A DNA stretch of 64,000 bases from Escherichia coli. Its GTDB lineage: Bacteria; Pseudomonadota; Gammaproteobacteria; Enterobacterales; Enterobacteriaceae. The notes under the pieces are model-generated. The model did not search any database. It was not told the DNA's origin and was given only the letters and a program-made list of their open reading frames with translations. Shown here piece after piece: positions 32,680 to 33,162 of the stretch; position 1 is the first letter of the stretch, and each line of letters begins with the position of its first letter. The position numbers were made by a program, and so were the translations under genes. The stretch lies in the NCBI RefSeq assembly GCF_003334785.1, contig NZ_QOWV01000014.1, one strand, 5' to 3'.

Positions 32680-32756
32680 GGCTACGTAGCTCAGTTGGTT
32701 AGAGCACATCACTCATAATGATGGGGTCACAGGTTCGAATCCCGTCGTAGCCACCA
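32680..32756 (+). tRNA. metT: tRNA-Met (elongator, anticodon CAU)
   Basis: GGCTACGTAGCTCAGTTGGTTAGAGCACATCACTCATAATGATGGGGTCACAGGTTCGAATCCCGTCGTAGCCACCA; cloverleaf with encoded CCA end. Confidence 0.92.
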
Positions 32757-32765
32757 TCTTTTTTT

Positions 32766-32850
32766 GCGGGAGTGGCGAAATTGGTAGACGCACCAGATTT
32801 AGGTTCTGGCGCCGCAAGGTGTGCGAGTTCAAGTCTCGCCTCCCGCACCA
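32766..32850 (+). tRNA. leuW: tRNA-Leu (anticodon UAG), long variable arm
   Basis: GCGGGAGTGGCGAAATTGGTAGACGCACCAGATTTAGGTTCTGGCGCCGCAAGGTGTGCGAGTTCAAGTCTCGCCTCCCGCACCA. Confidence 0.9.
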
Positions 32851-32873
32851 TTCACCAGAAAGCGTTGTACGGA

Positions 32874-32948
32874 TGGGGTATCGCCAAGCGGTAAGGCACC
32901 GGTTTTTGATACCGGCATTCCCTGGTTCGAATCCAGGTACCCCAGCCA
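32874..32948 (+). tRNA. glnU: tRNA-Gln (anticodon UUG)
   Basis: TGGGGTATCGCCAAGCGGTAAGGCACCGGTTTTTGATACCGGCATTCCCTGGTTCGAATCCAGGTACCCCAGCCA; single copy here. Confidence 0.9.
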
Positions 32949-32963
32949 TCGAAGAAACAATCT

Positions 32964-33040
32964 GGCTACGTAGCTCAGTTGGTTAGAGCACATCACTCAT
33001 AATGATGGGGTCACAGGTTCGAATCCCGTCGTAGCCACCA
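32964..33040 (+). tRNA. metU: tRNA-Met (elongator, anticodon CAU), second copy
   Basis: Identical 77-nt sequence to 32680..32756. Confidence 0.92.
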
Positions 33041-33087
33041 AATTCTGAATGTGTCGAATATGTTCGGCAAATTCAAAACCAATTTGT

Positions 33088-33162
33088 TGGGGTATCGCCA
33101 AGCGGTAAGGCACCGGATTCTGATTCCGGCATTCCGAGGTTCGAATCCTCGTACCCCAGCCA
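33088..33162 (+). tRNA. glnV: tRNA-Gln (anticodon CUG)
   Basis: TGGGGTATCGCCAAGCGGTAAGGCACCGGATTCTGATTCCGGCATTCCGAGGTTCGAATCCTCGTACCCCAGCCA; single copy here. Confidence 0.9.

Follow-up and report, generated by a model that had tools for sequence, protein, structure and literature searches.

The window, by which we mean the whole 64,000-nucleotide stretch of Escherichia coli DNA analysed here, was collinear throughout with an ordinary E. coli chromosome and had the gene order rhsC-kdp-speF-potE-pgm-seqA-fur-glnS-nag-asnB-(tRNAs)-ubiF-miaB-lnt-glt-leuS-mrdAB-rlpA. Analysis using ARAGORN revealed exactly five tRNA genes on the plus strand at 32680-33162, in the order Met(cat)-Leu(tag)-Gln(ttg)-Met(cat)-Gln(ctg). 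The first start, the last end and the anticodons agreed with the five-gene array given in a preliminary description of this DNA, as did the single copy of each Gln isoacceptor: one Gln(ttg) and one Gln(ctg). All five genes matched Rfam RF00005 with 57.6 to 71.1 bits, well above the gathering score of 29, so that chance matches are of no concern, and each was identical, base for base, to its K-12 counterpart or counterparts. No other tRNA gene was found in the 64-kb window outside this array.

The locus is anchored upstream by asnB (asparagine synthase B; 30636..32300, plus strand) and is followed by ubiF (33316..34491, minus strand). Both are 100% identical to the K-12 locus (L001), in which they are annotated, and the annotation of strain ECCTRSRTH03 agrees for asnB. 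A consensus scan placed a predicted operon promoter, TTGACG - 17 nt - CATAAT, at 32611..32639 on the plus strand (10 of 12 positions matching); its sequence is that of K-12, and its function is predicted from the K-12 literature. The first gene, metT (32680..32756, plus strand; 71.1 bits), encodes elongator tRNA-Met(CAU) and is identical to both metT and metU of K-12. It is followed on the same strand by leuW (32766..32850; 57.6 bits; identical to K-12 leuW), a single-copy essential gene for tRNA-Leu(UAG), by the single tRNA-Gln(UUG) gene (32874..32948), and by metU (32964..33040), the second elongator tRNA-Met(CAU) gene, which is a direct repeat of metT at a spacing of 284 bp (repeat family D1). 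The last gene is the single tRNA-Gln(CUG) gene (33088..33162, plus strand), which carries the wild-type CTG anticodon and is thus not a supE allele. A predicted Rho-independent terminator, an 11-pair stem followed by a T run, lies at 33168..33199 on the plus strand and is identical to that of K-12. Just downstream, at 33206-33275, are two tandem 35-nt REP-like units (83-85% identical to each other), which are likewise identical in K-12.

The locus is an ordinary E. coli metT tRNA operon: it lies between asnB and ubiF, is transcribed away from asnB, and shares with K-12 its remaining spacers and its promoter, terminator and tRNA sequences, the last three intact and wild-type. The processing route is presumably the same as well. 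The operon differs from that of K-12 in having five genes instead of seven, with one Gln(UUG) gene, one Gln(CUG) gene and neither of the 34-nt and 37-nt inter-Gln spacers; it therefore lacks the canonical tandem glnU-glnW and glnV-glnX composition.

To define what is missing, the window was compared with an MG1655 derivative (L001). As stated in the preliminary description, the K-12 array comprises seven tRNA genes between asnB and ubiF (Met-Leu-Gln-Gln-Met-Gln-Gln) with tandem Gln duplicates: glnU is identical to glnW, glnV to glnX and metT to metU, base for base. Apart from a single SNP, located in the metU-glnV spacer, the two sequences differed by two clean gaps, one of 109 bp and the other of 112 bp. 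The 109-bp unit consists of a 75-nt Gln-UUG gene and the 34-nt glnU-glnW spacer (TCTTCTTCGAGTAAGCGGTTCACCGCCCGGTTAT), and falls within 77 bp of homology at 32874-32950. The 112-bp unit consists of a 75-nt Gln-CUG gene and the 37-nt glnV-glnX spacer (ATTTATTCAAGACGCTTACCTTGTAAGTGCACCCAGT), within 77 bp of homology at 33086-33162. As a consequence, the coding sequences of asnB and ubiF are separated by 1,015 bp in the window, versus 1,124-1,127 bp in six-gene forms and 1,236 bp in the canonical seven-gene form.

Each tandem Gln pair of K-12 provides 77 bp of perfect direct-repeat homology. Thus, a retained Gln gene is flanked upstream by the spacer that precedes the first copy and downstream by the one that follows the second. 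Indeed, the Gln(UUG) gene of the window is preceded by the spacer of glnU and followed by that of glnW, and can be described, from the alignment gap, the extent of homology and the spacer length, as a glnU/glnW hybrid. From the alignment gap and the extent of homology, the Gln(CUG) gene is correspondingly a glnV/glnX hybrid. The point of crossover inside each 77-bp homology cannot be mapped. Both gaps amount to exactly one repeat period with perfect repeats on both sides, and neither has a scar or novel junction.

The metT operon is transcribed as one polycistronic precursor from a sigma-70 promoter, and RNase P does most of the cutting into tRNAs. To our knowledge, it holds the cell's only genes for tRNA-Gln(UUG), tRNA-Gln(CUG), tRNA-Leu(UAG) and elongator tRNA-Met. 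The terminator is removed from the precursor by RNase E (or RNase G), after which RNase P separates the tRNAs (PMC2241853), and the non-Met tRNA genes of the operon have been termed essential (PMC6265465). The five-gene operon retains every tRNA species and carries both Gln isoacceptors at half gene dosage.

The preliminary description had identified the CUG-Gln gene with the supE locus and had proposed that its copy number matters to amber suppression. Strain C600 bears this out: its promoter-distal CUG copy has the anticodon CTA, and its other CUG copy has the wild-type CTG. It is the redundancy of the locus that makes a supE suppressor tolerable. With one CUG copy only, a supE-type mutation would remove the sole tRNA-Gln(CUG); if the contracted array is real, such an amber suppressor could not arise in this strain except at that price. 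In C600-p2-V (NZ_CP181475; L145 781-855), the CTA gene is positionally glnX, though the allele is conventionally named glnV44; the gene was left unannotated by PGAP and was labelled tRNA-Pyl by ARAGORN.

We evaluated the frequency of the layout in 5,426 complete E. coli genomes using a query limited to the two inter-Gln spacers with 20-nt flanks, because the joining of BLAST matches is unreliable for this repeat structure. Both spacers were present in 5,210 genomes (96.0%), one in 188 (3.5%) and neither in 28 (0.5%). A tight 369-nt query across the array of the window was used to find collinear five-gene paths in the complete genomes. It recovered the full path in 20 of them, seven of which had expanded arrays; the pure five-gene layout was thus found in 13 of 5,426 genomes (0.24%). 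The comparison with other E. coli genomes proposed at the outset therefore yielded a seven-gene norm with the five-gene form as a rarity.

A similar picture was obtained from 92 untruncated arrays of Enterobacterales species representatives. Fifty of these (54%) had seven genes, 13 had two UUG genes with one CUG gene, 11 had one UUG gene with two CUG genes (six Erwinia species among them), and four had three CUG genes. A five-gene-like layout occurred in only one or two (a Pluralibacter metagenome-assembled genome, L054, and L128). The Salmonella operon also has the seven-gene form (PMC5400242), and E. coli strains have been reported to differ typically by one copy more or less (PMC4539685). 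The common state, and the ancestral one, is therefore an array of seven genes; an ancestral five-gene state is excluded by the presence of seven genes in 96% of E. coli genomes and 54% of the species representatives.

Single units are gained and lost in the normal course of evolution, and such changes can become fixed. Six-gene layouts made up 26% of the species representatives and were consistent within genera, being fixed in, for example, Erwinia, Pantoea and Buttiauxella. Such variants, with a single UUG or a single CUG gene, are clearly inherited because they recur across independent projects and whole genera. They resemble the window in that a unit has been lost between the same 77-bp repeats. 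They differ from it in that one unit is gone and not both, and in that the window has no five-gene kin. Loss of both units is rare everywhere. The six-gene form, with three Gln genes, was also found in several laboratory or industrial strains, namely ME8067 and the E. coli W derivatives LY180, SL112 and AQ15, an indication that loss of one unit also takes place, or is maintained, in culture.

We investigated whether the five-gene state is inherited by comparing the window with its relatives. Dozens of genomes were approximately 100% identical to window positions 20000-44999 yet spanned 25,221 bp, that is, 221 bp more (109 + 112). The nearest relatives, at 2-6 SNPs over 41-64 kb, all had seven genes: FDAARGOS_1248 differed from the window by 3 SNPs over 41 kb, and strain 200112 by 6 SNPs over 64 kb. 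Among five-gene records, the nearest was ECCTRSRTH03, at 9 SNPs over 64 kb. At the informative sites 17481, 24597 and 26995, the window carried the allele of the seven-gene genomes and not that of the five-gene strains ECCTRSRTH03 and CEA106S. In a wider assembly collection, contigs encoding the exact NagE allele of the window had seven genes in at least 17 places; the same lookup otherwise returned one two-gene contig and one eight-gene contig, and no five-gene contig. Outside the array, the window had no indels relative to its relatives over 64 kb, and its sequence is therefore a clean consensus, not a sloppy one.

Other five-gene genomes behaved similarly. FDAARGOS_1077 and STK39-3-E, both five-gene, were 18 SNPs apart, and seven-gene genomes lay 7-10 SNPs from FDAARGOS_1077; no allele was private to this pair. 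Every five-gene genome examined was a singleton nested among seven-gene relatives, and none formed a clade. Thus, the loss is not shared by independently sequenced relatives, the closest of which have seven genes, and the five-gene state of the window is not inherited. The layout was also considered as an inherited lineage marker and was rejected as such, there being no shared private SNPs in the two backgrounds examined. Some of the genomes used in these comparisons differed in other ways: CEA106S (L004 32901-34352) carries an IS1A insertion linked to the absence of the segment from hscC to ybeQ, which is present in the window at ~45080-52220, and the chiP gene of FDAARGOS_1077, 203740 and LR883012 (L003, L142 and L143) has an internal stop and is annotated as a pseudogene.

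The two losses occurred together far more often than expected. Under independence, at most 2.74 genomes should lack both spacers, versus 28 observed (Poisson P ~4e-19); for the 13 pure five-gene cases, the corresponding P is ~6e-6. Double loss is thus at least 10-fold commoner than independence predicts, although phylogenetic non-independence weakens this Poisson test. Shared ancestry does not explain the double loss in the window, because its relatives have seven genes. The co-occurrence points to one common cause, and an assembler that treated each repeat as single-copy would explain it directly.

Deposited sequences of this locus include several that cannot be real. Of the 5,426 complete E. 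coli genomes, 12 lacked any match to a query of leuW and its spacers. Only one Met and one Gln(CUG) gene were present at the locus in the laboratory K-12 strain MC1061 (NZ_CP195014, L008), in GF47 (NZ_CP172169; L011 and L137), in AVS0947 (L150), in IPCEC48 (L151) and in CP128440.1 (L140). In CEA224S (NZ_CP166080, L149 ~1370-1385), promoter leader and terminator are joined directly, and a scan with ARAGORN gave no tRNA gene at all. Arrays of two genes or none cannot be genuine because essential tRNAs are absent from them. GF54 and GF47 are the same clone, with no mismatches over 8.4 kb upstream of the array, yet the former has 11 tRNA genes and the latter two.

Seven records had the 11-gene array (Met-Leu-Gln)x3-Met-Gln. 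Five of these were inspected (GF8, L009 1782-2830; GF54, L136 8282-9330; GF130, L147; TUM2805, L010 and L148; STK78-E, L146 11279-12329), and each contained three perfect units of 283 or 284 bp, in different backgrounds and without the inter-Gln spacers. Among the 20 records with the five-gene path, the Met-Leu-Gln unit was present once in 13, twice in none and three times in seven. Stepwise biological expansion should pass through two copies, and none of that kind was seen; the threefold arrays therefore look algorithmic. They could be real amplifications or assembly artefacts. One specific origin, a short-read graph traversal fitted to length, was rejected: a true 704-bp array would lie closer to a twofold array (767 bp) than to a threefold one (1,051 bp). 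In an eight-gene array in GCA_027278895.1 (JAPWWQ010000001.1; L141 2411-2561), only 2 nt separate two Gln(CUG) genes, and it looks as though a further 76-bp gene copy had gone in with no spacer; this array is probably another consensus error.

The pure five-gene records are linked to the same sources. Ten of the 13 came from projects (GF, STK, AVS, IPCEC, CEA and TUM) that also deposited inviable or threefold arrays at the locus; for the projects behind the other three (2824, ECCTRSRTH03 and FDAARGOS_1077), no error there is known. These three are about as many as the two or three real double losses expected by chance. Accessions and strain names were used to search the literature for how the GF, STK, AVS, TUM, CEA and IPCEC projects had sequenced and assembled their genomes, and nothing useful was found.

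The preliminary description had framed the result as either a real recombinational loss or an assembly collapse. This was the right frame, as gaps of exactly one unit at 77-bp repeats fit both, and sequence alone cannot choose between them. The database evidence leans to collapse, to which we assign a probability of roughly 0.6. In this scenario, the source strain would probably carry the canonical seven genes. The assembler or consensus step would have passed through each 77-bp perfect tandem repeat once, and this single pass would have dropped the 34-nt glnU-glnW and 37-nt glnV-glnX spacers, each with one gene copy. Near-identical genomes have the full array, the short form is sporadic and linked to projects, and both tandem pairs in the region are reduced together. 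We infer that the window is itself one of the collapse artefacts of this locus. Collapse is not automatic, however, because the 77-bp repeat is shorter than typical short reads and than the words of k=127 graphs. The window contains no other long tandem repeat that might serve as an internal control; the only pair found by Tandem Repeats Finder was that of the 35-nt REP-like units. Collapse of this type resembles the false gene loss documented in complete genomes, in which the merging of repeat copies eliminates the unique sequence that separates them (PMC10868617; PMC6868369). The documented Unicycler cases involve kilobase-scale repeats between plasmids, as opposed to the 77-bp repeats of the window.

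A genuine and recent double deletion is the less probable account, although it is a serious contender. One glnU/W unit and one glnV/X unit would have been lost through misalignment of the 77-bp repeats, which are spaced at 109 or 112 bp. Template switching or slippage behind the replication fork, independent of RecA, could account for this, as could unequal sister-chromatid exchange. The scarless removal of exactly one unit at each site is as expected for such events, and RecA-independent deletion between direct repeats shorter than 200 bp is prominent and well measured in E. coli, where expansions accompany the deletions (PMC7145654). Losses of one unit are common and heritable, as judged from the 188 E. 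coli genomes with one spacer, the six-gene species representatives and the reported variation by one copy (PMC4539685). The genotype would be viable, since every isoacceptor and all operon signals are kept, and the window is the clean consensus described above. Loss of tRNA redundancy is costly in rich medium and can be beneficial under nutrient limitation (PMC9981150, which has no data on Gln genes); five-gene variants therefore need not be purged at once. Against these points, two independent events would be needed on a branch short enough to leave 2-6 SNPs to the relatives, double losses are over-represented at least 10-fold relative to independence, five-gene genomes never form clades, and most five-gene records come from projects with proven errors at the locus. 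We consider it improbable that the contracted array is real as one state of a fast, recurrent metT copy-number cycle in natural E. coli. In such a cycle, both Gln duplicates would be lost repeatedly on independent backgrounds, and the 284-bp Met-Leu-Gln(UUG) unit would then be amplified to the three copies present in GF8, GF54, GF130, TUM2805 and STK78-E. A cycle of this kind would retune the dosage of tRNA-Gln, tRNA-Leu(UAG) and tRNA-Met. Finally, the five-gene layout might be ancestral or horizontally imported, with the seven-gene K-12 form a derived duplication. The one or two five-gene-like species representatives could be read in this way. However, the E. coli census, the Salmonella operon (PMC5400242) and the species survey (50 of 92) all speak for seven genes, and the flanks of the window are identical to those of its seven-gene relatives right up to the repeats, so that no imported segment is visible. 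This explanation is effectively refuted and only very slightly probable.

Several characterized systems are comparable in part. The pSTL assays of Lovett, which use 101-bp repeats, and template switching at post-replication gaps share with the window closely spaced direct repeats of less than 200 bp and the precise loss of one unit; these are selected reporter events on plasmids, whereas the loss in the window is read from an assembled sequence. In Salmonella, the deletion that converted pUST313 to pUST314 arose by spontaneous recombination between identical tRNA genes of this very operon, with loss of the intervening genes leuW-glnU-glnW (PMC5400242). It differs from the window in that metT recombined with metU, the unit was 393 bp, and the event was plasmid-borne and selected by the toxicity of tRNA over-expression. 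In Pseudomonas fluorescens SBW25, tRNA dosage likewise shifts through spontaneous repeat-mediated events (PMC7661048, PMC10954465); there, tandem duplications of kilobases to hundreds of kilobases were selected to compensate for a deleted tRNA gene, in contrast to a contraction of ~110 bp with no known selection. Whether it reflects variation or error, the form of the operon here is of a kind already known and is nothing out of the ordinary.

The two accounts differ in their consequences. A real deletion would halve the gene dosage of the two glutamine tRNAs; deletion work published on further tRNA genes of E. coli predicts that such a strain grows more slowly in rich medium and may be at an advantage when nutrients are limiting (PMC9981150). 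An artefact would instead carry a lesson about databases: ~0.2-0.5% of the E. coli genomes listed as complete in RefSeq contain wrong, and sometimes impossible, versions of the operon, and the number of tRNA genes in a single assembly should therefore not be taken for biology. The asnB-ubiF interval, canonically 1,236 bp between the coding sequences, provides a cheap check of assembly quality, and the absence of leuW, as in the 12 of 5,426 genomes, could serve as a further flag.

The window contains other repeats. A 145-bp segment at 8614-8758, at the 3' end of kdpE, is repeated with 90% identity at 12949-13093, downstream of potE, where related records annotate a truncated winged-helix pseudogene. 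Inverted intergenic copies of ~117-141 bp that are 85-91% identical occur at 21874-21989 (near glnS/chiP), 30278-30393 (upstream of asnB) and 14426-14566 (near pgm), and have the look of REP/BIME-type elements.
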